A DNA stretch of 41,539 nucleotides from an uncultured bacterium (lineage in GTDB: Bacteria > B130-G9): positions 1 through 41,539 of the forward strand of contig CBDVDH010000034.1 in assembly GCA_965372715.1 (NCBI GenBank). The letters run 5' to 3'. The notes beneath the pieces are model-generated. The model saw only the letters and a program-made list of their open reading frames with translations. It had not been told where the DNA came from and did not search any database. The position numbers and the translations under genes are program-made. Below are positions 9,921 through 37,125 of this stretch, one piece after another. Position 1 is the stretch's first letter, and every line of letters starts with the position of its first letter.

Positions 9921-10859
9921 TCACGCCGACTGTTCGCAGGGAGCCTCGAGGAAGGTCAAAGACCGAAGCTCGGTATCGGCAGCGATCATCACGCCTTGCG
10001 GGAGGGTGATCTTGCGGGCGATGTGGCCGAAGGGGAGGCCTGAGAGGATTGGGTAGGGACGGCACGCGAGCTTCTCCATCAGGACTTGGTCGAGCGTGAG
10101 CGTGGGCTTGCGCCGGCGCGGGTAACACCGAACGAAGCGGCCGAGCAGGACCCCCGCGACGCGTGCAAGCACCCCAGCCAATTCGAGCTGCGTGAGGTAG
10201 CGGTCGATCCTGTATGGGGGCTCGTCAACGTCCTCGAGGAAGAGGACCGCGCCGGTCATGTCGGGGAAGTAGTCTGACCCGAGCAGAGCTGCGATGACGG
10301 AGAGACAACCGCCGACCAGCCTTCCCTGGGCCTTGCCTGGGGAGAGTGTCTTGATGCTTTTGGGCCACTGTCTCGGAAAGAGCGGCGCCCCCGCCCGAGC
10401 ATTGAACGCGTGCAACATGCGTGCAACGGATTGGGGCGCGGTCGGTCGAGCAAAGTCGATTGAGGCGACGGGGCCGTAGAATGACACGAGATCGCAACGA
10501 GCGAGTAGGGCCAGTTGTAGGGCGGTTGCGTCGCTGTATCCCACCAGAATCTTCGGGTTCTTTTTGACGACGTCATAGTCGATGAGTTCAAGGAGCCTTG
10601 CCGAGCCATAGCCGCCGCGTGCGGTGAAGATGGCGTCGGTCTCGGGGTCCGCGAACATCGTGTTGATGTCCCAGGCGCGCTGCTCGTCGGTCCCCGCGAG
10701 ATAGCCACGCCGGCTGAACAGATATTGACCCAGCCTGACGCGATAGCCCTGCCTTGTCAGGAATCGCGTCGCTTTACTGATCGACGCCTGATCGACGGGA
10801 CCGGACGGAGCGATTATGCCGATCGTGCCGCCGGTCGGGAGCGGTTTTGGTTTCAGCAT
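9921..10859 (-). CDS. ldcA: LD-carboxypeptidase (peptidase S66)
   Basis: IIAPSGP, YLAGTDEQRA, RGGYGS, VGYSDAT (catalytic Ser), GGCLS, LEDVDE, FGH. Confidence 0.93.
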   Translation of the reverse strand: MLKPKPLPTGGTIGIIAPSGPVDQASISKATRFLTRQGYRVRLGQYLFSRRGYLAGTDEQRAWDINTMFADPETDAIFTARGGYGSARLLELIDYDVVKKNPKILVGYSDATALQLALLARCDLVSFYGPVASIDFARPTAPQSVARMLHAFNARAGAPLFPRQWPKSIKTLSPGKAQGRLVGGCLSVIAALLGSDYFPDMTGAVLFLEDVDEPPYRIDRYLTQLELAGVLARVAGVLLGRFVRCYPRRRKPTLTLDQVLMEKLACRPYPILSGLPFGHIARKITLPQGVMIAADTELRSLTFLEAPCEQSA

Positions 10860-10909: not shown

Positions 10910-11464
10910 CTATTCAAAGAACACCAGGGAGTACCAATTCTGCTTCTCTGACCCTTCCGGGTCCTTGAGGGTCTGTATGGGTAGCCCAAGGCCCCGGGCG
11001 GTGGCAAAGACGTCGATGCCCATCCCCTGCATCGGTGGCCTTGCCCGGGCCGGGTCAACGCACGGCTTGGCATTCTGATACGCACAGCTCTCACATATCG
11101 CGCAGTCGCTGAGGCTGAATGCGAAGTAGTAGTCATCTGTGTATGCTTGGCTCTCAATTGCGATGGAGATCTTTTGGCTATCGTTCTGGTTGTTCGTATG
11201 AATGATGAGAGCCCAGGAGTACCTCTTTAACAGCGGCTCGGCCTCCCAGGGCATCAGCGCTTTCGGGGCGGACGGGCAGACCCAGCTTCTGTTCCAGCTG
11301 TCGCAGCCGTACATGCACTTCAGTATCGTTCGGTGGTCGAACACGATGCTGTCGATTGAGACGATCAGCGCGTCCACTGCGCCCATTTTAAGCGCCCGCT
11401 TGGTGTAACCAGCAAAGGCCTTCCGCGCCTGTTCGATACTCGTTGGCTTATCGAGCTTAGGCAT
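10910..11464 (-). CDS. Cys-rich predicted metal-binding protein (DUF2284-like)
   Basis: KCMYGC..W.CP, CAICESC, C..P..ARP.MQGMGIDVF pattern. Confidence 0.8.
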   Translation of the reverse strand: MPKLDKPTSIEQARKAFAGYTKRALKMGAVDALIVSIDSIVFDHRTILKCMYGCDSWNRSWVCPSAPKALMPWEAEPLLKRYSWALIIHTNNQNDSQKISIAIESQAYTDDYYFAFSLSDCAICESCAYQNAKPCVDPARARPPMQGMGIDVFATARGLGLPIQTLKDPEGSEKQNWYSLVFFE

Positions 11465-11485: not shown

Positions 11486-12664
11486 TTAGTTCTCACCCTC
11501 AGACGCCGTCTTGATCCGCTTATAGGATGGTATATGGATCCTGTGGGACAGGCCGGCGTTGTTTATCTGTTCAATGGTGAAGATCTTGTCGAGCTCGATT
11601 ACCTCCGTCTGGGGCTCCAGCAGCTCATCGAAGTGCGTTGCGATCAGCGTTGCCGTGATCGTATTGCCGGCCGTCTCATCCAGCCTGGTCCCGCAGAAAA
11701 CCTTTGCCTGGGGGCTAACAGTGCCGGTTATTCTCGACTTCAGTTCCATCGCCTCGGAGGCCATGACTTTGTAGCCAAGCGTTGTAATCAGCAGGATCGC
11801 CTGTGCCCCTTCCATGGGGGGATGATCGACCAGACTGTTGTGCAGGAGCCTCTCAACGAGCTCATCGACCTTGTTGTGCCCGGAAGCCGTTGCCTCCGCC
11901 ACAACCATCATCCCGCCGTCTTCGATTACGGCTCTTATGGACCCGAAATCTATCGCCATCTTTGCGGGCAAGAGAATCAGGTCCGTCACGCTGGCTATGA
12001 TGCTCGTGAGCAGTTCATCACGAAGCTTCAGCGCCTCGTAATACGTTATCTCGGGAGTCAAAGAAAAGAGCTTATCGTTAGGGATAACAATAATGCTGTC
12101 GGCGCAGGAGCGAAGCTCGGCGACCCCCGCAGCGGCGCTGTCCGCCTTCTGTCGTCCCTCATACTCGAATGGCGATGAAACCACAGCTACCGTGAGCGCC
12201 CCCGCGTCTTTAGCGATCTTGGCGAGGTGCGCCGCCGCCCCGGACCCAGTGCCACCGCCCATGCCGGCCGCGATGAGAACCATCCTGTAGTCGCTTGCGA
12301 TCTCGACCCACTTCTGCGAGGCTTCTTGGGCCGCTGCCTTGCCCAGCTCGGCGTCACCGCCACTTCCAATGCTCCTAGTTGTCTCCTTCCCAAGCAGCAG
12401 TTTCGACTCAATTGCGAGCCGTTCAAGTGACACGTAGTCTGTGTCAATCGCGATGAAGTCGAGCGACCCCACGACCCGATTCTGCATCTGCTCAATCAGG
12501 TTACACCCGTCGCCGCCCACTCCGGCGACCAGGACCTTGGTCTGTGGTGTCCGATCCTGGTCGCGCGCAAACCACACGAATGGCCATTTGGGCTTAGGGC
12601 GGACGGACGGCGGTCCGAAAGCGAACGACACTCCTGACGGCACAATTTCGGCTATGCTTCCCAT
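11486..12664 (-). CDS. ftsZ: Cell division protein FtsZ, strongly divergent
   Basis: Tubulin signature GMGGGTGSG, PFEYEG, VIPNDKL, C-terminal IPSYKR peptide, position after ftsA; T7 loop degenerate. Confidence 0.88.
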   Translation of the reverse strand: MGSIAEIVPSGVSFAFGPPSVRPKPKWPFVWFARDQDRTPQTKVLVAGVGGDGCNLIEQMQNRVVGSLDFIAIDTDYVSLERLAIESKLLLGKETTRSIGSGGDAELGKAAAQEASQKWVEIASDYRMVLIAAGMGGGTGSGAAAHLAKIAKDAGALTVAVVSSPFEYEGRQKADSAAAGVAELRSCADSIIVIPNDKLFSLTPEITYYEALKLRDELLTSIIASVTDLILLPAKMAIDFGSIRAVIEDGGMMVVAEATASGHNKVDELVERLLHNSLVDHPPMEGAQAILLITTLGYKVMASEAMELKSRITGTVSPQAKVFCGTRLDETAGNTITATLIATHFDELLEPQTEVIELDKIFTIEQINNAGLSHRIHIPSYKRIKTASEGEN

Positions 12665-12681
12665 CTTCTCTTACCTCCAAA

Positions 12682-13980
12682 CTACGTAAGTGCTACATTC
12701 TTGCATGTTAACGCGTCCCACGCCCGCCTGAACAGCGAACGGTTTCTATCCGAGAGGATGCCGATCCCAGCCGCCGGCTCAGAACCGTAAAGCAGCAGGC
12801 CCACCACGGTCGCGAAGCAGGGGTCCTGAAGCGCCCCGTCGAAGCACTCCGTGTCGGTACACCTTGCCTTCCGGGCCTGAACGCCGAAGATACGGGAAGC
12901 TAATCCGCACAGGCCGACGCTGGCCGAGCCTCCCCCAGTCAAGACAACGCTGCGTTTGATGTACTTCTCCGCATCCGCTCGGTGGATGTCATTCCTAAGC
13001 GTCAGCAGGATCTCAGAGTACCTCGATGAGATCGCCCTGACTGCCTTGGGGTCCGGCCTGTTCTCGTCCTTATCAGGGAGCAGGGACTCGATATGACCCT
13101 CGGTTGGACGAGGCTTCTCAACAATGCAACCAGCACTAGTCTTGACCTCCTCAGCCGTATGGAAGTCGCAGCCAAGGCACTCGGCAACATCCCTGGTCAC
13201 AAAGCCCCCACCCATAGCCAGGCAACTCGCGTATCTGGGTGACCCGCCGAAGTAGATGATGGCATCCGTTGTGCCCATGCCCAGGTCGATGAGCAGAACC
13301 CCATCCTCAGTCTCGTCCGGCGCCAGGCACGCCCTGGCTGACGCGAGCGACTGCAGGACGATGAGCCTGGCCGAGAGATGCGCCTCCCCGAGTGCTCTTT
13401 CGAGCTCATTGACTGCCCTCTGTGACGCTATGACGACCTTGATATGGGCCGCCAGGCGCTCCCCGGTCTTCCCAAGCGGGTTCTTAATGAACTTCCGGGT
13501 ATCGACCGCGAAGTCCTGCAAAATCGTGTGAAGTGTCTTCTCGTCGGAGCGCACTGTAACCGACTTTGCATCCTCGAGCGCGTGCTGGAGGTCGCTATCT
13601 ACTATCTCTCTCATTGCGCGTGTCTCTTTGGATGAGGATGACCCCGTAAGGGAGATGGCGCCCACGCTATCGATGGCCCTGGCGTGCCGGCCACTCAGCG
13701 AAACGACGACGTCCTTGATTTCGACCGACGCCATCACGGAAGCCTCGTCAGCCGCCGCTCTGATCGAGCTCGCAACCTTGGCGATGTCCACGAACTCCCC
13801 TCGCTCGACACCCCGCGTCCGCTCCTCACCGACGCCGACGATTCTGAGACGCGTGGAGCCTTCTCCGCCATCCCCCAGCTCCAGGTCTTCCTCAACTTCG
13901 CATAACTGGGCGATAACTGCCCGGGTGTTCTCCGAGCCAATATCCAAGGCGGAGACAAACTGCGGCGCTCGTCCAAACAT
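12682..13980 (-). CDS. ftsA: Cell division protein FtsA
   Basis: ALDIGS, DLGMGTT, AEEVK, VLTGGGS, FATVVGLL, C-terminal amphipathic SLFRRAWDAL. Confidence 0.9.
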   Translation of the reverse strand: MFGRAPQFVSALDIGSENTRAVIAQLCEVEEDLELGDGGEGSTRLRIVGVGEERTRGVERGEFVDIAKVASSIRAAADEASVMASVEIKDVVVSLSGRHARAIDSVGAISLTGSSSSKETRAMREIVDSDLQHALEDAKSVTVRSDEKTLHTILQDFAVDTRKFIKNPLGKTGERLAAHIKVVIASQRAVNELERALGEAHLSARLIVLQSLASARACLAPDETEDGVLLIDLGMGTTDAIIYFGGSPRYASCLAMGGGFVTRDVAECLGCDFHTAEEVKTSAGCIVEKPRPTEGHIESLLPDKDENRPDPKAVRAISSRYSEILLTLRNDIHRADAEKYIKRSVVLTGGGSASVGLCGLASRIFGVQARKARCTDTECFDGALQDPCFATVVGLLLYGSEPAAGIGILSDRNRSLFRRAWDALTCKNVALT

Positions 13981-13994
13981 AAACCTCTCCAGTA

Positions 13995-14849
13995 TTATCC
14001 GCTGTTCTTCCTCAGCACTATCTGGCCTCTAAACCTGAGGTCCGCGTATCTAAATCTGCCTTTATGGCGGGCTATCTCAGGTATTGCTAGGACGTACTTC
14101 TGAATCTGCCGCTTGGGCTCTTTCAGCGAGAAAACGAGCGCTGGCTCGCTAGCCCTGGGCCAGATTTGCACCTCGATGCGATCAACGACCTCGATTCGTG
14201 AGTCTGGGCCGAAATGCTCCAGTGCCAAGTCTGACAGCGAATCACACAATGCGACGAGGTCGGTGAAGAAGAGGTCTTTCACCCTCCCGCCAGGCCGGTT
14301 AGAGTCAAACGCAAGGCCCTGAACCGAGGGCAGGGAAACGGCCCCTCGCCCACTGGGCAAGGATAAGATGACCCCGTCGTCGGAAAGCCCCCACCATCTG
14401 CCATCGAGATTGGTCACAAATCTGGGCTTTCGCTCTTGCACGTTCACTACAAGGGTCGACGGGAACAGCCTTTTGAACGCGACGCTCTTGACTGAGGGCA
14501 TTGGGTCAAACAGATCGGCCACGTCCCGAGCTGAAACACCGAACAGGGAGCGACCCAGGCTGTTTGAGCATCCTTTGAGAATGCTGCTGGTGTCGAGGTC
14601 CCCGGCCGTCTCGACCACAATCTGACGCACCGCGAAGAGCGACCAGAACAACTTCGAGACGGCTGCCCTAGTAGGCGCGAATAGCATTACCGCGGCCAAG
14701 GCCGCCGCCACGATACTCACGGCCACAATGCTTACGATTCCCTTCGGCCAAGTCCTGCTGTGCCGTTTTTTGACGGGCGGCTTGGCCAGGGATGGGCGGT
14801 AGCAGAAAGCGATGTGCTCGCGTCTAAGGTCGATCGGTCTTCTTCTCAT
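13995..14849 (-). CDS. ftsQ: Cell division protein FtsQ/DivIB
   Basis: Basic N-tail, single TM, POTRA (VKSVAFKRLFPSTLVVNVQERKP), C-terminal YADLRF; ATG 14849 with GGGAG RBS chosen over GTG 14888. Confidence 0.85.
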   Translation of the reverse strand: MRRRPIDLRREHIAFCYRPSLAKPPVKKRHSRTWPKGIVSIVAVSIVAAALAAVMLFAPTRAAVSKLFWSLFAVRQIVVETAGDLDTSSILKGCSNSLGRSLFGVSARDVADLFDPMPSVKSVAFKRLFPSTLVVNVQERKPRFVTNLDGRWWGLSDDGVILSLPSGRGAVSLPSVQGLAFDSNRPGGRVKDLFFTDLVALCDSLSDLALEHFGPDSRIEVVDRIEVQIWPRASEPALVFSLKEPKRQIQKYVLAIPEIARHKGRFRYADLRFRGQIVLRKNSG

Positions 14850-14993
14850 CTCATGGCTCCCGTGTGCGTCCCTTATTGCTGCACCCACAGCCCTCTATAT
14901 GGGCTTGTCCCTGACAAGGGCAAGCCGCCAGTCCAGGCCATCTGTTCGGCCCCATGTTGTCGCAGACCCTCATCGCATTCGCTGGGCACAACG

Positions 14994-15944
14994 CTATATC
15001 TCCATCAACCCGTGCTCGCCGAGAACCTGAACTTCAATTAGGAGCTCGAGCCCCATGGACCTTTTGACCTCATCCCGCGCGATCCTTATCAACGAGAGGA
15101 TGTCTGCCGCCCACGCGCCGCCGTCATTGACAATGAAATTCGCGTGCTTGTCAGAGACTCTCGCCCCCCCGACCTTGAGCCCCTTCAGCCCCGCACCGTC
15201 GATAAGCGACCCGGCGCTCCCCTCATCGGGGTTTTTGAAAACGCACCCAGCGCTCTTCTCGGAAATCGGCTGTGATTCGATGCGACGTCGGCTGAATGCC
15301 ATCGCGGCCTCGACCGTCTCGTTGGGATCGCGCTGCTGGAGCTCAAACGTCGCTCCCAGGACTATCTCCCCGGGGATGACGCCAGAGTGGCGATAGGACG
15401 CGGGGAAATCCGACGCGGGGCACGAGTGAACGGACCCGTCTCCCAACATGAGCCAAACCTCCGCGAGCGAGTCCCAAATCCACTTGTCGAAGGCCCCGGC
15501 GTTCACGAAAACGGCGCCTCCCACGGTGCCGGGCACGCCGGTCAGGGACTCGAGGCCCGACAAGCCCTTTTTCACCGTTGTATCGACAAGGGCTGAAAGG
15601 GGCCTCCCAGCTGGGACGATTTCTCCATTGGTCTCCGCGTTGGTCTCGTGCTCGAGCCTTTTGAGTGTGGCTACGACCCCTCTGAAGCCCCTGTCGTTCA
15701 CAATTACATTTGTCCCGTTACCTAGTATGAAAAGTGGCGCCGATTCCGACGCGCAGAATTGGCCTATCGCTGCCAGTTGCTCGACCGAGGCGGGTTCGAC
15801 GAAGACGTCTGCCGGCCCCCCGACCTCGAAGGATGTGTGAGTGCACAAAGGCTCGTCAAAGATACTCTCGCAACCCATATCGGCGCACAACGAAGAGAAA
15901 TCCTCTATCCAAGGTTCGACGCAAACGCCAAATCCCGACATCAT
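14994..15944 (-). CDS. murB: UDP-N-acetylenolpyruvoylglucosamine reductase
   Basis: HTSFEVGGPA, LGNGTN, PGTVGGAVFVNAGA, SAGCVFKNP, SDKHANFIVN. Confidence 0.95.
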   Translation of the reverse strand: MMSGFGVCVEPWIEDFSSLCADMGCESIFDEPLCTHTSFEVGGPADVFVEPASVEQLAAIGQFCASESAPLFILGNGTNVIVNDRGFRGVVATLKRLEHETNAETNGEIVPAGRPLSALVDTTVKKGLSGLESLTGVPGTVGGAVFVNAGAFDKWIWDSLAEVWLMLGDGSVHSCPASDFPASYRHSGVIPGEIVLGATFELQQRDPNETVEAAMAFSRRRIESQPISEKSAGCVFKNPDEGSAGSLIDGAGLKGLKVGGARVSDKHANFIVNDGGAWAADILSLIRIARDEVKRSMGLELLIEVQVLGEHGLMEI

Positions 15945-17347
15945 TCTTTCTCCCTAACTTTCTCTCTTATTCCCTCAAGGATGACGTCTCCCATCGTGTA
16001 TATATCGCCCGCGCCCAAGACCAGAACCATATCCCCCGGCCTTGCCTCCTTGACGAGGCGCTCTGCGGCCTGAGACTTGTTCTCGACATAATGGGCTGCC
16101 CGGTGCCCCATCCTTGTTACACCCTCGAGAATGAGGCGCCCGTCAACCCCCTCGATAGGTTTCTCTCCAGCCGGATAAATGGAGGTTATGACCAGGAAAT
16201 CCGCCTCGTTGAACACCGTGAAGAACTGCGGGAGGAGGTCTTGAGTCCTCGTGAACCGATGAGGCTGGAAAGTGACCAGAATCCTCCTTTGCCAGCCCAA
16301 TTTCGCTGCCTTGAGCGTTTCACGTATCTCGGTCGGATGATGCCCGTAGTCAACGATAACCATGATGTCATTCTCCACGCCCTTTAGCTCGAAGCGCCGC
16401 CCGGGTCGCACGAAATTCGCAAGTGCGTCGCTGATGACAGCAAAGTCGATACCGAGCTCAAGCCCAACCGTGACCGCGGCCAGCGCGTTATAAACGCTGA
16501 AGACCCCGGGCGATGCAATCGTTATCTGACCTAACCGTTGATGGCTTTGTCCCTGCCGCTTGTGAACCTCAAACTGGCTCGTGAATCCCTTGAAGCGAAC
16601 GTCCGTGGCCATGATGTCCGAGTCCGTAGCGAGGCCGTATGTTAAGAGCCGGCGTTTGATCTTGGGGATCAAAGACTTGAGATTTGGCTGGTCGAGGCAC
16701 ATCACTATCGTGCCGTAGAAGGGGACCTCGTTGGCGAAGCTCACAAACGTGTCAAAGAGCGCCTCCTCGCTCCCGTATCGCTCCATGTGCTCCCGCTCGA
16801 GTGAGGTGACGACGCCGATTGTCGGGGAGAGCTTCAAGATGGTCCCGTCCGACTCGCACGCCTCAGCAACCAGAATGTCGCCTGCGCCCAGCCGACCCCC
16901 GCTTCCGATGTCGCTGACGATGCCGCCAATGACCACCGTGGGATCGAGCTTAGCCGTCCTGAGGACGTTCGCGATCATGCAGGCCGTCGAGGTCTTGCCG
17001 TGGGTGCCAGCGACCGCGATCCCATACTTGCTCATCCGCATCAGCCCGGCCAGCATCTCCGCGCGGGGTATGTCCGGAATGCCGCTCTTCCTGGCCGCGA
17101 GAAGCTCTGGGTTATCCCCGGCAATGGCGTTTGAATAGACCACTAAGTCGGCTCCAGCAACATTTTTCTTCGAGTGAGGGATAAAGACCCTCGCGCCGAG
17201 GCTTTTGAGTCGCCCGATCAGGTCGCTGTCCTGAATATCGGACCCTGACACCTCATAGCCGAGCCTCAATAACACCTCGGCTATGCTGCTCATGCCACTG
17301 CCGCCGATGCCGACCAGATGAATCCTTCTAATCCCAGCGAACATCAC
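15941..17347 (-). CDS. murC: UDP-N-acetylmuramate--L-alanine ligase
   Basis: IHLVGIGGSGMS, GSD, AGTHGKTST, EACESDG, DYGHHPTEI, FQPHRFTRT, GAGDI. Confidence 0.97.
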   Translation of the reverse strand: MMFAGIRRIHLVGIGGSGMSSIAEVLLRLGYEVSGSDIQDSDLIGRLKSLGARVFIPHSKKNVAGADLVVYSNAIAGDNPELLAARKSGIPDIPRAEMLAGLMRMSKYGIAVAGTHGKTSTACMIANVLRTAKLDPTVVIGGIVSDIGSGGRLGAGDILVAEACESDGTILKLSPTIGVVTSLEREHMERYGSEEALFDTFVSFANEVPFYGTIVMCLDQPNLKSLIPKIKRRLLTYGLATDSDIMATDVRFKGFTSQFEVHKRQGQSHQRLGQITIASPGVFSVYNALAAVTVGLELGIDFAVISDALANFVRPGRRFELKGVENDIMVIVDYGHHPTEIRETLKAAKLGWQRRILVTFQPHRFTRTQDLLPQFFTVFNEADFLVITSIYPAGEKPIEGVDGRLILEGVTRMGHRAAHYVENKSQAAERLVKEARPGDMVLVLGAGDIYTMGDVILEGIREKVREKE

Positions 17348-18504
17348 TTGCCCCCAGACTCAACGCGGCTTCTAAGAACCGACAGCAAGAGGCTGACCGT
17401 TATCAGGTTTGCAAGCATCCCGCTCCCGCCGTAGCTTATGAAAGGCAGGCTGATACCCGTCGTCGGCATCAATCCCAGCACAACACAGATGTTCATGAAG
17501 CTCTGGATACCCAGGCTCATCGCCAGGCCGAAACCGAGCAGTCTTGCGAAGTATATGTCGAGCGACAGGCTGAGCATTATTCCCCTAGCCACGAGCGTCA
17601 AGAAGAGCACTATTATTACTGTCCCAGCGATGAACCCGCCATCCTCGGCAAGCGATGCGAACGCGAAGTCATTGAAGCTCTCGGCGAGCACCAGATGCTT
17701 TTGCATGCCTTTGCCCAGACCCATGCCGAGGACCCCGCCCGAGCCCATCGCGGTGAACGCCTGTCTCAGGTGCCACGGTGCGTCTGTTGGGTCAACTAGA
17801 TAGGCCACAAAATCAACCACCCTCTTTCTGAAGTGGGGTGATATGTGATACGCACAGAGTCCGGAAGGCAGCGTCAACGCAGCCAGTGCCGCGATGTGCG
17901 TGAGCCTGGTCTGGGCAACGAAATAGACCGAGACGCAGATCAGGCCCAGCAGCCCGGCGGTGCCGTAGTCCGGCTCGGCGGCGACCAAGAGGACGACCAG
18001 CGAGACTACCGGTAACGTCGCCATGAAGACCCTCACCGACCCGTGGCGCTTCTGGCGCTGGGTCCAGATCACCGAAGCCAGGAACAATGGAAGGGTGAAT
18101 TTGGCCAGCTCGCTCGGCTGAAAACAGAAACCATAAACGCTGAGCCACCTCGTTGCCCCCCTGTGGGTCACGCCAATACCGGGGACAAGCACAAGCGCCA
18201 GCAGACAAACCGTCAGAAGCATCAGCGGCCAACTGAGCCTCGGCAAGGCCTCAAACCGGACCAAAGATACCCCAATAGCAACCCCCAGCGCAAGAGCGGC
18301 ACATACCACATGCCTCGCCAGGTAATAGTAAGGGGTTCCGTGTTCGTTCGCGGAACGAAGCATCGTCGCAGAGAAGACCATGATTATCCCCACAGCGAGG
18401 AGTACAACCACGATGGAGATGATTACATGATCCAGCCCCGACAACCTGCGAGAAATGCTACTCGGCTTGCGCAACCCCAATCCCCTTTCCCTCGAAGTAC
18501 TCAA
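17344..18504 (-). CDS. ftsW: Peptidoglycan polymerase FtsW (SEDS family)
   Basis: GATRWL, QPSELAK, EPDYGT, G.GLGKG, PTTGISLPFISYGGS; true start may be a few codons downstream (TTG 18474). Confidence 0.93.
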   Translation of the reverse strand: MSTSRERGLGLRKPSSISRRLSGLDHVIISIVVVLLAVGIIMVFSATMLRSANEHGTPYYYLARHVVCAALALGVAIGVSLVRFEALPRLSWPLMLLTVCLLALVLVPGIGVTHRGATRWLSVYGFCFQPSELAKFTLPLFLASVIWTQRQKRHGSVRVFMATLPVVSLVVLLVAAEPDYGTAGLLGLICVSVYFVAQTRLTHIAALAALTLPSGLCAYHISPHFRKRVVDFVAYLVDPTDAPWHLRQAFTAMGSGGVLGMGLGKGMQKHLVLAESFNDFAFASLAEDGGFIAGTVIIVLFLTLVARGIMLSLSLDIYFARLLGFGLAMSLGIQSFMNICVVLGLMPTTGISLPFISYGGSGMLANLITVSLLLSVLRSRVESGGK

Positions 18505-19861
18505 GCACGGCTTCTTTGAAGCTGGCGCCTCGATCGCGAAAGTCCGTGAACATGTCGAAGCTGCTGCACCCAGGGGACAGCAGAATCACGTCCCCGCTAG
18601 CGGCAAGGCTCGCCGCCATCGCCACGATGTCCCGGATATCGCCCTGATTGCGCATAACCGGCAGGCGCCGGCCAAGAGCCTCCTGGATCTTCGGGCCCGC
18701 CTCACCAATCGCGATGACCGTCTTGATTCGGTTCCTTCCAGCCCTGAGAATCTCTTTGTAGTCGCATCCCTTATCCCGTCCGCCAGCGATCAGGATGATC
18801 GGCTCGTCGAACGCCTCAATCGCTTTTGTTACCGACAGAGTGTTGGTTGCGTGGGAATCATCAACGAAGGTTATTCCCCTGAACACGGCGAATACCTCAA
18901 GCGTGTGAGGTGAAAGCTCGAACCCATTGATGGCGTCCTTCAGCGCCCCCGCGGATACCCCACAGTTGATCGCCAGGGCGGCCGCGGCCATGACATTCTC
19001 CACGTTGTGCAGGCCCGGCAGAGCGATGTCTGAGCGCTTCAATAACAAAACGACGTCGCCGCCTGTGACCGAGATGATACGGTCCGAATCCAAGAAGACG
19101 CCGTTGACCCCGCCGGGGTCATCAACGCCGAAGCACATCCGTGGTGGTGTTACATCGCGCGTCAGCTCCAGAAGCTTGACGTCCCCGGCGTTTACGACCA
19201 GAAAGTCGTCGGCGCCTTGGTTCTCAAAGATGCGGAGCTTTGCGGCGTAGTATTCCTCGAGGCTTGAGTAGCGGTCGAGGTGATCGACCCCGAGGTTCGT
19301 GACGCAAGCGATATGCGGTCTGAAGGTCTCGATGGTCTCGAGCTGGAAGCTGCTCACTTCGGCGACGACCTTCGCGTCCGGCGACAGGGCCAAGACCTTC
19401 TCGCAGAGCGGCTCGTCAGGCAGGTTTCCCCCGACGATAGATTCGACCCCAGCGGCGCAGAGCATGCGGTGCAGAAGCCGCGCGGTCGTTGATTTACCCT
19501 TGGTGCCCGTTATCGCGAGGAACTCACAATCGCACAGCATAAACGATAGCTCTAGCTCACCTATCACCGGGGCGCCGGACTCCCGGGCCTGCTGGAGAGG
19601 TTCAATAGCGGTCGGCACGCCAGGGCTGACAACTACCATCTCTGCGTGGCGCATGACGTTGCTTGGCGCCTCACCCAGGTGAGACCGTATTCCGTGCCGT
19701 CTCAAGACCTCGGCTCGCTCCCTTAGGACCTGGCCATCCGCGTGGTCCACGACGGTTACTTCGGCGCCGAGTCCTGCAAGCACCCGTGATGCGGCATTGC
19801 CGGACGCGCCGAGCCCGAAGACGACGATCCGTTTGCCCTCAAAATCGCCCTTGAAACGCAT
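18458..19861 (-). CDS. murD: UDP-N-acetylmuramoyl-L-alanine--D-glutamate ligase
   Basis: GLGASG, SPGVP, ITGTKGKST, EVSSFQLE, DHLDRY, GGRDKG, LLSPGCSSFD. Confidence 0.95.
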   Translation of the reverse strand: MRFKGDFEGKRIVVFGLGASGNAASRVLAGLGAEVTVVDHADGQVLRERAEVLRRHGIRSHLGEAPSNVMRHAEMVVVSPGVPTAIEPLQQARESGAPVIGELELSFMLCDCEFLAITGTKGKSTTARLLHRMLCAAGVESIVGGNLPDEPLCEKVLALSPDAKVVAEVSSFQLETIETFRPHIACVTNLGVDHLDRYSSLEEYYAAKLRIFENQGADDFLVVNAGDVKLLELTRDVTPPRMCFGVDDPGGVNGVFLDSDRIISVTGGDVVLLLKRSDIALPGLHNVENVMAAAALAINCGVSAGALKDAINGFELSPHTLEVFAVFRGITFVDDSHATNTLSVTKAIEAFDEPIILIAGGRDKGCDYKEILRAGRNRIKTVIAIGEAGPKIQEALGRRLPVMRNQGDIRDIVAMAASLAASGDVILLSPGCSSFDMFTDFRDRGASFKEAVLEYFEGKGIGVAQAE

Positions 19862-19866
19862 CAGAC

Positions 19867-20949
19867 CTACTTCACCTTGACGACGACCACTGCGATAAGG
19901 CTGAATATGAATGATATTATCAGCATCCTGGAGACCACCTTCGCCTCGTGCCAGCCCTTGAGCTCCAGGTGGTGATGAAACGGCGCCATGAGAAAGGCTC
20001 TCTTGCCTGTGGTCTTGAAGCCCGCGACTTGAACGATCACGGAGACTGCCTCGATGACGAAAACGCCGCCCAGAATCGGCAGCAGGAACTCCTGCTTACA
20101 CAATAGTGCGACTGCGCCGATTGTGCCGCCTATCGCCATTGAGCCCGTGTCCCCCATAAAGACCTGAGCAGGAAACGTATTCCACCAGAGAAAGCCGAGT
20201 CCAGCCCCAAAGAGGCCCAGGCATACAACAGAGGCCTCGCCGCTGCCCCTTATGAACATGGTGTGCAAATAATCTGCGAGTATCCTGTGCCCCGCCACGT
20301 ATGCCAGCGCCCCAAGCGTGAGGATGGTCATGCTCGACACTCCAATAGCGAGTCCGTCAAGGCCATCGGTTAGGTTCACGGCATTTGTCGTTGCCACGAG
20401 AACGACGGCCACGACGATGAGGTACGCCAAGCCAAAATTCGCGACCGTGTGCTTGATAAAGGGAAACTGAAGCGACGTAACACCAGGCTCTTCACAAAAT
20501 GTGATAAACAGGACCCCAATTGCGAGCGCTATCGTCAGTTGTAGCGCTATCTTGAACCTGGCGGAAAGCCCCTTCGAGCTCTTTCTTGCGACCTTCTGAA
20601 TGTCGTCCGCAAATCCCAACAGCCCATAAGCAACAAGTGCTGCCAGTGTTATCCAGACATATACGTTTGCGAGGTTCCCCCACAACAGAACCGAGATGAA
20701 CACGCTCAGCACTATCATGACGCCGCCTGCCGTCGGGGTGCCTTTCTTGGCAAGATGCCCCTCCGGGCCATCCTCCCGAATGAACTGCGTGAGACCTCGC
20801 TTCTGGAGCTGGCGGATTAGAAATGGCCCTAAGATGAAGCAGATGCAAAGCGACGTCACAAGGGCGCCAGCGCCGCGCAGCGTAATATACCTGAACACGT
20901 TGAGCGGCGAAAAATGCTCCTGCAGCGGCAATATCAGATGATAGAACAA
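19867..20949 (-). CDS. mraY: Phospho-N-acetylmuramoyl-pentapeptide transferase
   Basis: KKGTPTAGG, GFADD, NAVNLTDGLDGL, FMGDTGS, APFHHHLE. Confidence 0.97.
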   Translation of the reverse strand: MFYHLILPLQEHFSPLNVFRYITLRGAGALVTSLCICFILGPFLIRQLQKRGLTQFIREDGPEGHLAKKGTPTAGGVMIVLSVFISVLLWGNLANVYVWITLAALVAYGLLGFADDIQKVARKSSKGLSARFKIALQLTIALAIGVLFITFCEEPGVTSLQFPFIKHTVANFGLAYLIVVAVVLVATTNAVNLTDGLDGLAIGVSSMTILTLGALAYVAGHRILADYLHTMFIRGSGEASVVCLGLFGAGLGFLWWNTFPAQVFMGDTGSMAIGGTIGAVALLCKQEFLLPILGGVFVIEAVSVIVQVAGFKTTGKRAFLMAPFHHHLELKGWHEAKVVSRMLIISFIFSLIAVVVVKVK

Positions 20950-20987
20950 GTCGTTTGGCCCCTATATATCGCCGATGCTTTCGACAT

Positions 20988-22436
20988 TCAGTTGCTCACC
21001 ATTTCCTGGCGCGACTTCTCGCACAGATTGTGCACGAGGCGATCAAGCGCCCATGCCCGCGAGCCTTTTATCAAGACCCAGGCGCCGCCCTTTATGTCAT
21101 CAAGCGCCTTTCGCAGGTCAAACAGGGACGGGCTGTGTTGTATTCGGTCGGAGGGCATTCCCGAATCGCGCGCCCCTTTTGCGATATGTTCCGAAAGCGG
21201 CCCAAGCAGTAGGAGCCGGTCTATGGCTCGGGCGCCGATGAATATGCCGATCTTATAGTGTTCGGACTCGGCTATCTCGCCGAGCTCAAGCATATCGCCA
21301 AGGACAAGGATGGCCGGCCTCTCAGGCTCGACCTTACTGCGCAACTCCAGCAGCGCATCGACAGCGGCGCGAACCGCCGCCGGTGATGAGTTGTACGAGT
21401 CATCAAGTATCTTGAGTCGCCCATCGTCGCTCGTGACCAGGTTGAGGCGATGTGGGAGAGGACTTGTGTTTAGGAGTCCATCAGCGACGGCCTGCCACGA
21501 CATGCCCATGTGTTTCCCAACGGCGACAGCAGCAAGCGCGTTCTTGACGTTGTGGGTCCCCAGGAGGGGGCATCTGAAAGAGAAAGAACTACCGCGGTGA
21601 GCAACGGCAAAGGCTATCCCGTCCTCCCCTAACGCCTTCACATTCTCAGCCCTGAAATCGCCGCCCGATAGGCCAAAACCCACCACCTCACACTTGGCCA
21701 GATGAGACCGGCTCTGCAACCGCCCATCGTCTGCGTTCAGGAAAAGCGCACCATCGGACGGGAGCTTGGCGAACAACTCGGCCTTTGCGTCCGCCACGTC
21801 GTCGAGGGACCCGAAGAACTCCGTATGACAGGTGGATACATTCGTTACGACGCCGATATTAGGCTCACAGATGTCAGCGAGCTGCGCTATTTCGCCCTTC
21901 GCGCTCATCCCTAGTTCCAGGATAAGGTACTCACAATTGGCCTTGGCCTTGAAGATCGAAAGCGGCAGGCCATAAACGTTGTTGTAGTTATTGATAGACC
22001 TGTCGGCCTTGCCCGCGCGGCGCAGAACCGCGTAGATGAGCTCCCTCGCGGCGGTCTTGCCCAGGCTGCCGGTCACTGCGATGACATTCGCCCGAAGCTT
22101 GCGGCGGAAGAAATTGCCGAGCTTTGCCAGCGCCTGGGTTGTGTCTGACACAGTGATGAGCGGCCCAGGCCCCTCCTCCGCCGATTCATCGCGCCTCGAC
22201 CCACGCTGCCACCTGACCCTCGAGACGATCGCGCAGCAGGCCCCTTTTAAGAATGCCTTCTCAACGAAATCGTTCCCGTTGAAGTGCTTGCCCTTGACGG
22301 CAACGAAAACATCGCCCTTCTTGAGTGTGCGTGTATCGATCGAGAAGCTGGTCGTGTACGTCGGATGAAGCGGCGGATACATGAACTGCCCGTCAACAAC
22401 CCTCGCAAGCTGTTGTATCTGAATCGGCCTGGTCAT
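20988..22436 (-). CDS. murF: UDP-N-acetylmuramoyl-tripeptide--D-alanyl-D-alanine ligase
   Basis: IDTRTL, VTGSLGKT, NN.YGLP, ELGMS..GEI, DDSYNSSP, GDMLELG, KGSR; ATG 22436 overlaps murE stop with GGGAGG RBS. Confidence 0.95.
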   Translation of the reverse strand: MTRPIQIQQLARVVDGQFMYPPLHPTYTTSFSIDTRTLKKGDVFVAVKGKHFNGNDFVEKAFLKGACCAIVSRVRWQRGSRRDESAEEGPGPLITVSDTTQALAKLGNFFRRKLRANVIAVTGSLGKTAARELIYAVLRRAGKADRSINNYNNVYGLPLSIFKAKANCEYLILELGMSAKGEIAQLADICEPNIGVVTNVSTCHTEFFGSLDDVADAKAELFAKLPSDGALFLNADDGRLQSRSHLAKCEVVGFGLSGGDFRAENVKALGEDGIAFAVAHRGSSFSFRCPLLGTHNVKNALAAVAVGKHMGMSWQAVADGLLNTSPLPHRLNLVTSDDGRLKILDDSYNSSPAAVRAAVDALLELRSKVEPERPAILVLGDMLELGEIAESEHYKIGIFIGARAIDRLLLLGPLSEHIAKGARDSGMPSDRIQHSPSLFDLRKALDDIKGGAWVLIKGSRAWALDRLVHNLCEKSRQEMVSN

Positions 22437-23959
22437 GGCGTCCTCCCGTCCTTTAGGCAATGTCCCATGTCCCAAAGTAGCTCCCGCGCAACGACGCGGT
22501 CGTCGAATGGGTATCTCGCTGTCCCTACGATCTGGTGCGGCTCGTGGCCCTTGCCAAGTATGACCACAACATCCCCCGACGCGGCGTTTTTGAGAGCAAG
22601 CTCGATCGCCTTGCGCCGGTCCGGCTCTATCAGGACCTCAGCCGACGCCACAGACCTGGCGCCTCGTTCGACCTGCTGGACGATCTTGATTGGGTCCTCG
22701 GTTCTGGGGTTGTCGGACGTGATCACGCAAAGGTCGCTTGATTCTGCCGCTATTCGTCCCATAGGGGCGCGCTTAGTAGGGTCACGGTCCCCGCCTGCAC
22801 CGAGCACCGTAATTATCCGCCCGGTTGTCAACTGCCTTGCCGTGGCAATCGTCTTGGCTACGGCGTCGGAGGTGTGGGCAAAATCGACAACAACGAGGAA
22901 ATCCTGCCCGCAAGAGACCTTCTCAAAGCGTCCCGGAACCCCATCAAGCGACGCGATGCCGCCAGCTATTTGCTCAGCCGTCAGGCCAACCACGGCCGAT
23001 GCTGCTATGGCAGCCAGGCAGTTCTCAACCGCGTGAGCGCCTATCAACGACGTCTTGACCTCGAACACTACGTCCGGGGCCCTAACCTCGAATACCGTCC
23101 CATCTCCCGACAGGCGAATCCCGCTTGCCAGAAAATCTGCGCTCTCATTTGACATCGAGAATGTCAGCGTCTCGACCTTTGACGCGGCCAGAAATCTATC
23201 GGAATGGCCATCGTCCAAGTTCACTACTGCCTTAGCGTCGGGCGACGCTGAGGGGTCAAGGTGACGCTCGAAGAACCTGAGTTTGGCGGCCATGTAGTTC
23301 TCAAACGTCCCATGGAAATCAAGGTGTTCGCGGGTTATGTTCGTGAAGATGCCCATCTCGAATCGGCACCCGTCGACGCGCCTCTGTGCAAGCCCGTGCG
23401 AGGACGTCTCAAGAAGCACCCAGCGAACTTCCTTCTTGCGCATGTCGGACAGAAGACGTTGCAGCGATACCGGGTCAGGCGTTGTGAGTGAGGCCTGCTC
23501 CTTGCGCCCAGGGTAACGGTAGCTGATCGTCCCAATGACGCCAACTGTGGCGTCGGCGCCAAGAATTGACTCCAAGAGATACGAAACGCTGGTCTTCCCA
23601 TTAGTGCCGACGATGCCAATTAGCTTCATGTGCTCGCTGGGCCTGCCGAAGTAGTTCGACGCCGCAACCGAGAGGGCAGAACGCGCGTCTTCGACAAGGA
23701 CGAGCGTCGGGCGGCCCTCCGGAGCATACCGGCTCACGTCGGCAAGGACCTCCTTCCGATCCAGGACAACTCCGGCTGCGCCGCCTTTGATTGCGTCCAG
23801 AATGAAGTCGTGCCCATCTCTAGAGAACCCGGGGAGGGCAAAGAACACTGTGGAGGGCGAGGCGCTGGAGGAAGAGCAGGATAGGCCCGAAATCTCGACG
23901 GTCAAATCACCCAGTGCAGCTTGCGTGGGAATGTCCTTCAAGACGTCGCTGAGCCTCAA
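22433..23959 (-). CDS. murE: UDP-N-acetylmuramoyl-dipeptide--meso-diaminopimelate ligase
   Basis: GTNGKTS, TTPD, ETSSHG, EHLDFH, DFAHT, GGDRD, DNPR (mDAP-type), GKGHE; TTG 23959 overlaps ftsI TGA. Confidence 0.94.
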   Translation of the reverse strand: MRLSDVLKDIPTQAALGDLTVEISGLSCSSSSASPSTVFFALPGFSRDGHDFILDAIKGGAAGVVLDRKEVLADVSRYAPEGRPTLVLVEDARSALSVAASNYFGRPSEHMKLIGIVGTNGKTSVSYLLESILGADATVGVIGTISYRYPGRKEQASLTTPDPVSLQRLLSDMRKKEVRWVLLETSSHGLAQRRVDGCRFEMGIFTNITREHLDFHGTFENYMAAKLRFFERHLDPSASPDAKAVVNLDDGHSDRFLAASKVETLTFSMSNESADFLASGIRLSGDGTVFEVRAPDVVFEVKTSLIGAHAVENCLAAIAASAVVGLTAEQIAGGIASLDGVPGRFEKVSCGQDFLVVVDFAHTSDAVAKTIATARQLTTGRIITVLGAGGDRDPTKRAPMGRIAAESSDLCVITSDNPRTEDPIKIVQQVERGARSVASAEVLIEPDRRKAIELALKNAASGDVVVILGKGHEPHQIVGTARYPFDDRVVARELLWDMGHCLKDGRTP

Positions 23960-25824
23960 CTTGAGCCAGCCTTCGATCGCGGAGTCCGTGCCATCCGCAA
24001 GAAGGGCGGCTTTCTCGAGCCAAGATACGCAAGCACATGGCCTGCAACAGCGGAGAAAATGGGGGCAGCAACTGTGCTCCCCCATATTTCTCGCTGTTTA
24101 TGTCGCGGGCTGAAGACACTTATTAGAAGCGCGATTTGTGGGTCTTCAGCTGGCGCGAAACCTGTAAAGGAGGTGATGAGGTCGTTGTGTGAATAGCACC
24201 CTGCCTCGTCATCGAACACTTGAGCCGTGCCCGTCTTACCGCACACGGAGACGCCCGGAACGCTTGCCCTGTGCCCTGAGCCATTGGTTACGACCTTGTG
24301 CATCATTCCTGCAACAGTTCTTGCCGTGTTGGCTTGAACGACTCTCCTGATAACCCTGGGACTCGTTCGATGAATGATGTTGCCGTCGGCATCTTGAACC
24401 GCCGCAAGGATGTAGGGCTGCATCAGCAACCCATCGTTGGCAATCGCAGAAACGGCCGACACAAGTGAAAGCGCAGAGACAGAAATGCCTTGACCGAAAG
24501 AGACAAAACACGTATATTCGTCATCCCACAGCGAGAGCTTCCTAACCCCCGGCGCCGGCTCCGCAAACAGGCCAAGCCCGGGCTTGTCAAGGAACCCGAA
24601 TCGCATCAAATACTCGTGTAGAAGGTGAGGCGTGAGCCTCATGCCTATCTTCGACATGCCGATATTGCTAGAGTTCACCACGATATCCTCGACCGTCAGC
24701 TCGCCGAATGGGCGCCAGTCCGAGATTGTGGATTTCCCGACTTTCAAGGAGCCGTTCTCGCAGAAGAATGTCTCGAAGGGGCGCACGATGTTCATGTCGA
24801 GGGCCGCCGCGACCACAAAGACCTTGACAAGCGAGCCTGGCTCATAAAGGTCCGTCAAGCAGCGTGCCTTATAGAGCGCGCCCGGCGCCCGAAGATCAGC
24901 AAGGTACTCAGGCTTGTTACGACCGCGGTCAGGAAGAATGTAGCTTTCGGTATAGTCTGATGAAGAATATGAGGGAAACGTCGCCATCCCCAGAATCGCG
25001 CCCGTTTTCGGGTCCATTATCACACCGAGCGCGAGCGGTGCGTCCCACGCCTCACAAGCCTCGCGAAGGTGCTTGTAAAGAATATGTTGGATGATGTTGT
25101 CGATCGTGAGGATGATGTCGTGACCATCAGTGGGGGGCCTCAACACCTCTTGCGGAAGAGGCGTGCCTTTGAGGCGCACGTATGGGTTTATCACGAGTGT
25201 GCCCGGGATACCGGAAAGCTGCCCGTTGAAGCGGCGCTCGGCGCCCTCAAGCGCATCGCCCTGAGCGTTGACAAACCCGACGATGTTGCTGGCGCAATCC
25301 GATGTGTAAAAGCGCTGATGCTCAACGGTGCTGCCGACGCCCGGAACGTGAAGAGCCTGAATCCTCACAGCTGTGTCTTCATCGCAAAAACGACGCAGCC
25401 GGACGAATCTTCGCTCGTCCCCGAAGACATCGTCCACCTTGCGCCTCGGTATGCCCGGAAACCCAGTAAGTTGCTTCCTTGCCAGTTCCTTCTCCTCATC
25501 GGTCAACCCGTGGGAGCAGGCCCAAAAAGACAACGTCTCACGACATCCGGCGAGCGTCCGCATCCGGCAGTCAAGTATCTGCCCGCGACTCGCCGGAATC
25601 GGCAGCCGTCTCGTGTGAATTGACTCAGCGATCCTCTTGTAGTCGCCGTGCTTGAGCATCTGAATGCAGACCAGCCTGAAGATGGCCAGGCCCGCGATCA
25701 GGATAAACACCAGAAGCACTGCCAGCATTCGCACGGCCTGCGAATCGAGCTTTCGCGGCCGCCGAGAATGCACGATGTCACCCGCTGTCGGCCCCTGACG
25801 CCGATTACCGTTCGTGGGCGGCAA
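23956..25824 (-). CDS. ftsI: Class B penicillin-binding protein FtsI (PBP3)
   Basis: N-terminal TM, RGQILD, EPGSLVK (SxxK), SSN, KTGT; GAGGT RBS before TTG. Confidence 0.94.
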   Translation of the reverse strand: MPPTNGNRRQGPTAGDIVHSRRPRKLDSQAVRMLAVLLVFILIAGLAIFRLVCIQMLKHGDYKRIAESIHTRRLPIPASRGQILDCRMRTLAGCRETLSFWACSHGLTDEEKELARKQLTGFPGIPRRKVDDVFGDERRFVRLRRFCDEDTAVRIQALHVPGVGSTVEHQRFYTSDCASNIVGFVNAQGDALEGAERRFNGQLSGIPGTLVINPYVRLKGTPLPQEVLRPPTDGHDIILTIDNIIQHILYKHLREACEAWDAPLALGVIMDPKTGAILGMATFPSYSSSDYTESYILPDRGRNKPEYLADLRAPGALYKARCLTDLYEPGSLVKVFVVAAALDMNIVRPFETFFCENGSLKVGKSTISDWRPFGELTVEDIVVNSSNIGMSKIGMRLTPHLLHEYLMRFGFLDKPGLGLFAEPAPGVRKLSLWDDEYTCFVSFGQGISVSALSLVSAVSAIANDGLLMQPYILAAVQDADGNIIHRTSPRVIRRVVQANTARTVAGMMHKVVTNGSGHRASVPGVSVCGKTGTAQVFDDEAGCYSHNDLITSFTGFAPAEDPQIALLISVFSPRHKQREIWGSTVAAPIFSAVAGHVLAYLGSRKPPFLRMARTPRSKAGSS

Positions 25825-26128
25825 TTGTCTTTACCTCACGATTTGAGTAGTGCCTTGACAGAATGACCATCTCCTGGGGTTCCGGCCGAACAAAGCCTAA
25901 CCTTTCAGCGCTCTTCTCCAGCGCCGGAAGGCTGCTTAATTGCAGCAGCTCCTCCCTGAAACCATCACCGCGCCTGGCCAGGCTCCCATACTCCGATTCG
26001 AGCGCCGATATCTCCCACTTCAAGTTCATGATGCGGAAGCCTTGCCACAGGTAGAACAGCGCGCTGGCGACCAGAATGCCGATGGTGAGCAAATAAAACA
26101 TCGTATCACCTAGCCTCGCAGACCTCAT
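25805..26128 (-). CDS. ftsL: Cell division protein FtsL
   Basis: Single TM plus coiled coil ending LEKSAERLGFVRP; lies between rsmH and ftsI. Confidence 0.8.
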   Translation of the reverse strand: MRSARLGDTMFYLLTIGILVASALFYLWQGFRIMNLKWEISALESEYGSLARRGDGFREELLQLSSLPALEKSAERLGFVRPEPQEMVILSRHYSNREVKTIAAHER

Positions 26129-26131
26129 CGT

Positions 26132-27085: not shown

Positions 27086-27121
27086 AAACCCCCCCTCGGG
27101 GAATGAAAAAAACAGCCTCTG

Positions 27122-36942: not shown

Positions 36943-37125
36943 CTTTCCTCTCCATTCTTCAGGATTAAGGCGTGACCGGGCAATCACACCCGGTCTACGC
37001 TGAGCAAAACCATGAAAAAAGCCCTTGCATCTCCAGGAGCAGCATAGCCCGGCGCCTCGAGAATTCAACGGGTGTCGAGTCGCCCAATAATCACATCGAA
37101 GGGCGTCCGGCTCGATGAGGGTCCA

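Follow-up and report, generated by a model that had tools for sequence, protein, structure and literature searches.

The ftsZ gene in a 41,539-nt stretch of DNA from an uncultured sediment bacterium (contig CBDVDH010000034.1 of assembly GCA_965372715.1; from here: the window) encodes an FtsZ that has exchanged two of the three conserved polar residues of its catalytic T7 synergy loop. The face of the nucleotide pocket that receives this loop is remodelled as well (N43D, Q47V/M and R142K in E. coli numbering). Both sets of changes are shared throughout the phylum, the gene is under purifying selection and lies in its standard genomic context, and it is the only locus of its kind found in the genome. 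We consider it somewhat probable that this is a working sole division FtsZ that would bind GTP and whose polymer-stimulated GTPase would be much reduced or absent, with a largely or wholly non-catalytic longitudinal interface between subunits.

Residues were placed in register by a phmmer alignment to the Staphylococcus aureus FtsZ chain, with the numbering of PMC8936486. The E. coli numbers of the T7 residues (N207, D209 and D212) are taken from PMC8456036, and other E. coli numbers were derived by offset. The codons of the T7 loop, ccc gca aag atg gcg ata gat ttc ggg tcc ata, specify P233 to I243 (PAKMAIDFGSI). A first-pass annotation made from the DNA letters had read Ala and Ser at the positions of N207 and D212, and both the codons and the S. 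aureus alignment agree with it. Its broader statement that the GTPase-activating residues of this loop are lost holds for these two but not for D209: the motif N-x-D-x-x-D, by which the loop completes the active site of the adjacent subunit, reads A-I-D-F-G-S here, with the middle Asp alone retained. The Asp to Ser replacement at residue 242 (tcc) requires two base changes. The features of the gene are as follows.

11486..12664, minus strand: ftsZ, 392 aa; no other FtsZ/tubulin-family gene was found in the genome (PF00091, PF12327, TIGR00065, AlphaFold2 fold)
12584..12664, minus strand: N-terminal extension M1-W27, predicted disordered, conserved in shallower clade members (alignments, AlphaFold2)
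12500..12523, minus strand: T1 loop G48-N55 (GVGGDGCN), with D52 at the position of E. coli G21 (G21D)
12425..12445, minus strand: T2 loop and start of helix H2, D74-L80 (DTDYVSL; alignment, conservation survey)
12353..12373, minus strand: T3 loop S98-D104 (SIGSGGD), lost G98 and A101 (G98S, A101S), kept G100 and G102
12239..12265, minus strand: T4 signature G134-G142 (GMGGGTGSG; GGGTGSG at 136-142), intact
12146..12148, minus strand: K173, at the position of the catalysis-assisting arginine (S. aureus R143, E. coli R142), changed
11936..11968, minus strand: T7 synergy loop P233-I243 (codons read, alignments, surveys, independent contigs)
11510..11533, minus strand: C-terminal conserved peptide I378-K385 (IPSYKRIK), aligned to the canonical tails of 23 other FtsZs

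The active-site residues of the T7 loop and of the pocket compare as follows.

A237, equivalent to S. aureus N208 and E. coli N207: changed
D239, equivalent to S. aureus D210 and E. coli D209: kept
G241, equivalent to E. coli A211: changed (A211G)
S242, equivalent to S. aureus D213 and E. coli D212: changed
D74, equivalent to S. aureus N44 and E. coli N43: changed
D76, equivalent to S. aureus D46 and E. coli D45: kept
V78, equivalent to S. aureus Q48 and E. coli Q47: changed
G102, equivalent to S. aureus G72, which holds the pre-catalytic water (E. coli number not mapped): kept

The further deviating motifs named in the first-pass annotation are all present, namely GVGGDGCN (residues 48-55), DTD (74-76), SIGSGG (98-103) and EGRQK (169-173), and so are the GGGTGSG signature, the intact reading frame and the C-terminal peptide, which extends over IPSYKRIK. 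The N-terminal extension, put there at about 40 aa, comes to about 27 aa beyond the canonical N-terminal segment in the alignment. The concerted change of the pocket face (N43D, Q47V/M, R142K) had not been recognised.

These replacements are not confined to one genome. The genome collection holds seven genomes of the phylum, which make up one family with four genera; the phylum is probably Candidatus Coatesbacteria, a name based solely on how NCBI labels a homologue with 79% identity. An orthologue with the same T7 loop occurs in all six other genomes at 58-98% identity, and in a collection of 5.8 billion proteins the clade comprises ten clusters at 52-100% identity, beyond which identity does not exceed 39%. 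All ten clusters carry M-x-I-D-F-G-[S/A] in the T7 loop, DTD in the T2 loop, the equivalent of K173, and Val or Met at the position of Q47. Position 52 of the T1 loop is Asp in eight of them, the exceptions, one Ala and one Gly, being the two deepest members. Within the T7 loop, position 237 varies among Ala, Ser, Lys and Arg, G241 is invariant and position 242 is held to Ser or Ala, which indicates that the tip of the loop is still constrained and not drifting. A search of 1.84 billion representatives at 50% identity gave about 19,800 FtsZ-family proteins; among the best 150 of these, the clade is represented by one cluster (P0009) and one fragment (P0124).

Sequencing or assembly error, or a decaying gene, had been named beforehand as a possible source of the substitutions, and we regard it as practically negligible. 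None of the orthologues in the ten clusters and seven genomes has the canonical NxDFAD. Contigs from three independent metagenome runs span the T7 codons fully and those of a fourth partly; across these four studies, which sampled salt marsh, marine sediment, hydrothermal vent and cold seep, the sole difference is a synonymous change from gcg to gca at A237 (position 11954). The ratio of nonsynonymous to synonymous substitution rates (dN/dS) of ftsZ is 0.15-0.18 between the genome of the window (G000) and G001 over 393 codons, far from the value near 1 that decay would predict, and that of ftsA is about 0.21; this pair alone is informative, because synonymous divergence is saturated in the deeper pairs (dS of 2.0 or more). 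The reading frame is intact in G000, G001, G002 and G003. What can be held in favour of decay is the ftsZ of one further genome (G005, 83% complete; G005:C168:2922-4096), which is split by a frameshift into two overlapping frames near residue 170. This split is probably an assembly or strain-level indel, because the intact 392-aa cluster P0006 matches the local sequence of G005 just past the frameshift. Altogether, the gene was found in 19 DNA sequencing runs and in no RNA run, which has no bearing on its expression.

Position, fold and ancestry identify the protein as an orthologous FtsZ. It matches PF00091 (4e-36, 125.5 bits against a cut-off of 33) and PF12327 (3.5e-11, 43.7 bits against a cut-off of 27), in the two-domain order of FtsZ (Tubulin/FtsZ GTPase domain first, FtsZ C-terminal domain second). 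Its best sequence matches in the Protein Data Bank (PDB) are FtsZ, with E-values down to 3.6e-55. An AlphaFold2 model built from a 14-row alignment (mean predicted local distance difference test, pLDDT, 77.5; predicted template-modelling score 0.75) has the canonical fold over residues 44-343, with residues 1-30 (pLDDT below 50) and the linker disordered. The top Foldseek matches of the model in the PDB are all FtsZ, at target-normalised template-modelling scores of 0.92-0.94 and a root-mean-square deviation of about 2 Å over about 305 columns. At the same time, the protein departs from the catalytic-loop motif that characterises the family and scores 265.7 bits with the NCBIfam ftsZ equivalog TIGR00065, under the curated cut-off of 295.2 that was passed in 13 of 14 control genomes. 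The retained GTP-binding residues comprise G48, G50, G51 and G53 of T1, G134-G140 including T139, and G142 of T4, as well as the Asn of T6 (N196) and the Asp of H7 (D216). The GTP-binding loops are thus intact, and the protein would be expected to bind GTP. Fold, GTP-binding loops and tail peptide are kept, the gene is under purifying selection, and we take ftsZ to be a working gene.

The tail peptide IPSYKRIK, in which P379 and R383 are invariant in the clade, is likely to be the FtsA-binding tail, judged from its alignment to canonical tails. The C-terminal linker that leads to it (residues ~348-385; 11510-11620, minus strand) is short and conserved across the clade, in contrast to the variable disordered linkers of most FtsZs: F362, T363, I364, N368, A370 and H374 are invariant or nearly so, and a short helix is predicted at residues 364-368 in the model.

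The extent of the remodelling was measured against 261 non-clade FtsZ domains from 256 proteins, in which 98 positions are at least 85% conserved. The clade keeps 60 of these, has lost 33 and is mixed at five. Many of the 33 losses are conservative (V/I, S/T, Y/F, K/R). The non-conservative ones include both faces of the gamma-phosphate region (N43D, Q47V/M, G98S in T3, N207x, A211G and D212S), and in the C-terminal domain the Asn at 293 has become Ile or Val. The retained set also includes E169-G170 and, in T7, D239-F240.

Outside the clade the same residues hardly vary. The 261 domains, like a second set of 80 loci from genome contigs, are best matches to this query and not random samples; the 80 loci are canonical-type, at most 39% identical, and none comes from the clade's own records. 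D212 is Asp in 258 of the 261 domains, in 78 of the 80 loci and in all 23 FtsZs taken from other bacterial families. N43 is 99% conserved outside the clade against Asp in 10/10 clusters inside, Q47 is 95% conserved, and R142 is Arg in 94% outside against Lys in 10/10 inside. At T1 position 52 the non-clade domains have Ala (175), Gly (79), Cys (3), Ser (3) or a gap (1), and never Asp. The full canonical set N43, Q47, R142, N207, D209 and D212 is present in 228 of the 261 domains, and the clade's combination at these six positions in none.

The next-best scores after the clade belong to apparent tandem FtsZ fusions, which score highly only because they have two domains. P0121-P0123 (744-840 aa) have canonical T7 loops in both halves, and in P0125 (731 aa) both T7 loops are altered (D209 to Asn or Thr, D212 to Glu). 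A natural D212N occurs in P0245 (423 aa), an otherwise canonical FtsZ with a canonical tail peptide.

The change is specific to FtsZ. Over the FtsZ core, the 23 other bacterial families are a median of 54.6% identical to one another (45.3-66.2), and the clade is a median of 33.5% identical to them (27.8-37.3). MraY, encoded in the same cluster and used as a control, gave 44.7% between the clade and the others and 47.9% among the others; since MraY is not accelerated, the lineage is not fast-evolving in general. In a FastTree phylogeny (LG+gamma, 30 sequences, 348 columns) the clade forms a monophyletic group (support 1.0), and its stem is the longest internal branch, at 0.92 against a median of 0.078. 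The remodelling of both faces of the site sits on this phylum stem. Horizontal replacement by an FtsZ of the type found in the Candidate Phyla Radiation (CPR) was considered and rejected, because the clade branches separately from the CPR copies. For an archaeal source, which was considered as well, the tree held no sequences of known identity.

The search for a second ftsZ or tubulin gene, proposed in the first-pass annotation, gave none beyond the single ftsZ locus. In the window's own genome (95.9% complete, 112 contigs) both PF00091 and TIGR00065 point to the same single locus. PF00091 finds one ftsZ locus each in six of the seven phylum genomes, among them all four with a completeness of 94% or more; in the seventh (86% complete), whose ftsZ is split over contig ends, it finds none. 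With PF13809 (Tubulin_2), nothing above the cut-off was found in any of the seven.

Structures and mutants of canonical FtsZ give these residues a functional meaning. In S. aureus FtsZ, two residues from the T7 loop of the upper subunit, D210 and D213, hold the pre-catalytic water together with G72 of the lower one; of these, D210 is described as the catalytic residue, which swings to position the catalytic water, with D213 and G72 supplying its chemical environment (PMC8936486). The same source has N208 and Q48 coordinating K+, N44 and D46 holding Mg2+ waters, and R143 assisting catalysis: R143K assembles with reduced GTPase, and D46A, R143Q, N208L, D210N and D213N suppress assembly (PMC8936486). 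E. coli FtsZ D212A has 7% of wild-type GTPase (PMC8142252). Strains with chromosomal D212A or D212G are viable; for D212G, kcat is at 14% and treadmilling speed at 6.7%, and the cells show deformed asymmetric septa and form DNA-less minicells (bioRxiv 10.1101/077610).

From the loss of the D213, N208 and Q48 equivalents, together with the equivalent of R143K, we infer a strongly reduced polymer-stimulated GTPase in the clade. Zero activity is not claimed, because the equivalents of D210, G72 and D46 are kept. Of the two explanations offered in the first-pass annotation, division by a sole FtsZ has become the leading hypothesis, and its qualifier 'non-hydrolysing' is too strong, given that D209 is retained. 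On the phylum stem, the T7 (top) face exchanged the Asn of the K+/Mg2+ sphere for Ala, Ser, Lys or Arg and its second Asp for Ser or Ala, and the pocket (bottom) face exchanged N43 for Asp, the K+-ligand Gln for Val or Met, the Arg for Lys and, in most members, the T1 Gly for Asp. As both faces changed together, with small residues at the T7 tip and carboxylates in the pocket, they probably still meet in a head-to-tail polymer. In the mechanism that we propose, the protein would still bind GTP and form head-to-tail filaments, with FtsA as their tether and ZapA as their cross-linker, in which every longitudinal interface would be similar to the one at the non-catalytic N-site of alpha/beta-tubulin. 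Polymer-stimulated hydrolysis of GTP would be strongly slowed or absent, and treadmilling with it, and the main role of the Z-ring would be that of a lasting scaffold for the septal synthases FtsW and FtsI. GTP binding, polymerisation, the low GTPase and the scaffold role are predictions from the comparison of sequences. The lineage may divide with an unusually static division ring. A further-reaching possibility, which we put forward tentatively and consider less likely than not, is that a whole phylum uses an 'all-N-site' FtsZ, in which GTP would be structural and unhydrolysed, treadmilling would not occur and the septal wall would be synthesised on a static scaffold.

A parallel to this combination of residues was found in CPR bacteria. 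D212S occurs in two of the 80 survey loci, both from Candidatus Staskawiczbacteria (genomes G041 and G042), whose genomes of about 0.8 Mb have two FtsZ genes each:

CPR paralogue A: 313-325 aa, tail-less, pocket canonical, T7 loop with D212S
CPR paralogue B: 489-583 aa, canonical tail peptide, pocket with N43D, Q47R and R142K and the T4 Thr replaced by Leu, T7 loop canonical

In the tree, both paralogues fall outside the Coatesbacteria clade. On the simplest reading of these sequences, A and B would alternate in a filament, in which the dead T7 loop of A would meet the pocket of B in a structural interface and the live T7 loop of B the pocket of A in a catalytic one, which looks like a division of labour in the style of alpha/beta-tubulin. 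D212S, N43D and R142K are common to the pair and to our clade, and Q47 is replaced in both (Arg there, Val or Met here), but the changes are split over two paralogues there and united in one polypeptide here. By analogy, the clade FtsZ may have a matched, non-catalytic interface of the tubulin N-site type; with all these changes in one polypeptide, every interface of the filament would be of the structural type. D212S, N43D and R142K plus a change of Q47 may be a recurrent recipe for turning a catalytic into a structural interface.

The same pairs bear on the second explanation of the first-pass annotation, a two-FtsZ system in which the copy described here would co-polymerise with, cap or scaffold an active paralogue encoded elsewhere. 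The Staskawiczbacteria genomes hold just such complementary pairs, and the phylum genomes are all incomplete metagenome-assembled genomes (MAGs). No second FtsZ or tubulin gene was found by the searches described above, and the two-FtsZ reading is therefore not supported; moreover, this copy bears both an altered T7 loop and an altered pocket, and not one complementary half. We consider a partner of this kind very improbable.

Several observations weigh against a sole FtsZ with little or no polymer-stimulated hydrolysis. D239, G102 and D76 are all retained, so that real hydrolysis may persist, and the pocket carboxylates D74 and D52 may replace the lost functions instead of marking a dead site. 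The single S. aureus mutants N208L and D213N suppress assembly (PMC8936486), so that polymerisation here assumes compensation. R142K is not diagnostic, being the sole change at the six positions in 11 of the 261 other domains. The CPR parallel draws on two genomes from a single candidate group, in which the way the interfaces pair is itself deduced. All phylum genomes are MAGs, 83-96% complete, in which a second FtsZ could be missed.

The first of these points lead to a competing view, which we hold to be a serious if clearly less probable possibility, that the site is rewired but active: D239, D74 and D52 would rebuild the metal and water network and sustain useful hydrolysis with normal treadmilling, possibly with altered cation dependence or less dependence on polymerisation. 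Besides the three retained residues, the division of roles described for S. aureus fits this view, as D210 positions the catalytic water and D213 provides its environment (PMC8936486). Negative charge has moved off the T7 loop (Asp to Ser) and onto the pocket (Asn to Asp in 10/10 clusters, Gly to Asp in 8/10), which resembles a transfer of charge across the interface, and the invariant G241 and the restriction of 242 to Ser or Ala agree with a loop tip still under constraint. On the other side, position 237 is free to vary among Ala, Ser, Lys and Arg, as fits a lost function, the K+ ligand Q47 has become hydrophobic Val or Met, and the Arg to Lys change lowers GTPase in S. aureus (PMC8936486). 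The CPR pair has its pocket changes in the paralogue whose pocket would face the D212S loop, and a non-catalytic interface fits this arrangement better.

It is also conceivable, though in our judgement improbable, that the protein no longer forms dynamic head-to-tail filaments and instead binds GTP as an adaptor or regulator of the divisome, recruiting FtsA and ZapA, for instance, while other systems organise constriction. The suppression of assembly by N208L and D213N in S. aureus would agree with this (PMC8936486), as would the change of 33 of 98 conserved positions, including Asn 293 in the C-terminal domain. MinC, MinD, SepF and DivIVA gave nothing above cut-off, with MinC and SepF sought in all seven genomes and MinD and DivIVA in the window's own genome. 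However, both interface faces were changed jointly and are now conserved, as would be expected if they still meet, ZapA is kept in 7/7 genomes, and the fold and tail peptide are intact.

In its genomic context, ftsZ is the end of a standard division and cell wall (dcw) cluster, next to ftsA, and a GGAGG Shine-Dalgarno sequence lies at 12674-12678, 9 nt 5′ of the ftsZ ATG, with the ftsA stop codon 17 nt upstream. The neighbouring features are:

13995..27682, minus strand: rest of the dcw cluster, with mraZ, rsmH, a gene for an ftsI-type penicillin-binding protein, murE, murF, mraY, murD, ftsW, murC, murB and an ftsQ-like gene (NCBIfam)
12682..13980, minus strand: ftsA, immediately upstream of ftsZ (TIGR01174, 290.1 bits against a cut-off of 175.85)
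10910..11464, minus strand: DUF2284 predicted metal-binding protein, starting 21 nt past the ftsZ stop codon (domain match)
9921..10859, minus strand: LD-carboxypeptidase, after the DUF2284 gene (domain match)

The LD-carboxypeptidase gene follows ftsZ in 4/4 genera, and the DUF2284 gene is present in 3/4. The usual tether FtsA and cross-linker ZapA are retained, and MreB, like ZapA, is present in 7/7 phylum genomes. The Min system was not found above cut-off (MinC in the seven phylum genomes, MinD in the window's own); SepF gave no match at all in the seven, and for MinD, FtsE and DivIVA the own genome has only sub-cut-off matches to related ATPases or coiled coils.

Some further features of the window were noted. 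The dcw cluster has no ddl and no murG between ftsW and murC (15941-18504, minus strand); a MurG-like gene lies on another contig of the same genome (G000:C6:42262-43380; 241.9 bits against a cut-off of 250.25). FtsW scores 313.8 bits, under its cut-off of 337.5. Two large open reading frames at 30154-33495 and 33622-37203 (both minus strand) encode 1113 and 1193 aa; neither has an NCBIfam family except for a short 'choice-of-anchor X' match that ends the first.

To our knowledge, engineered mutants have so far been the only test of whether bacterial division needs GTP hydrolysis and treadmilling by FtsZ. If our reading is correct, this phylum would be a natural experiment on the same question, complete with compensating changes on the opposite face, and the clade marks N43, Q47, R142, N207 and D212, plus G21, as co-varying residues of a candidate switch from a catalytic to a structural interface. 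Such a step is thought to underlie the alpha/beta-tubulin heterodimer. A search of open-access full text gave no paper on Coatesbacteria and FtsZ and no description of a natural FtsZ without the T7 aspartate, only canonical or engineered proteins. A survey of the FtsZ/tubulin family contains neither 'T7 loop' nor 'catalytic' in its text, and its supplementary trees may include the lineage (PMC9871819).

Among known systems, the most divergent bacterial FtsZ groups are, according to the same survey, that of the Verrucomicrobiota and the second copy of the CPR (PMC9871819). The former, like ours, is a single, highly divergent FtsZ encoded in the dcw cluster, but it belongs to a different lineage. 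Canonical bacterial FtsZs (structures from S. aureus, Aquifex aeolicus, E. coli and M. tuberculosis) have in common with the protein described here the fold, the T4 loop, the guanine and phosphate contacts, the position after ftsA and the tail. They differ in core identity, which is 45-66% among themselves and 28-37% to our protein, in the sub-cut-off TIGR00065 score of the latter, and in the active site, where N207, D212, Q47 and N43 are replaced here, R142 is Lys and T1 has an Asp. The FtsZ of Candidatus Thiosymbion oneisti is a natural low-GTPase FtsZ (kcat 0.49 per min) that still serves division, but the catalytic residues are kept there (PMC8953583) and several are replaced here. ZapA, which binds FtsZ filaments according to a published abstract, is the cross-linker expected for filaments of the proposed kind.

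A further comparison is with the E. coli mutants D212A and D212G, in which, as here, the second T7 aspartate is lost in the sole FtsZ of a dividing cell. The D212G allele is presumably the classical ftsZ2. These are single engineered changes, whereas here the loss is natural, phylum-wide, selected and accompanied by matched changes on the opposite face. In tubulin, the T7 loop of beta-tubulin has K254 and no catalytic acid and faces the non-hydrolysed GTP of the alpha-tubulin N-site, while E254 of alpha-tubulin is catalytic (PMC13394414). The likeness lies in a T7 loop without the catalytic acid and an interface GTP that is structural in beta-tubulin and would be so here. The difference lies in the arrangement: the tubulin N-site interface alternates with a catalytic one and is built from two gene products, whereas in this phylum one product would form all interfaces, and all of them would be of the non-catalytic type.

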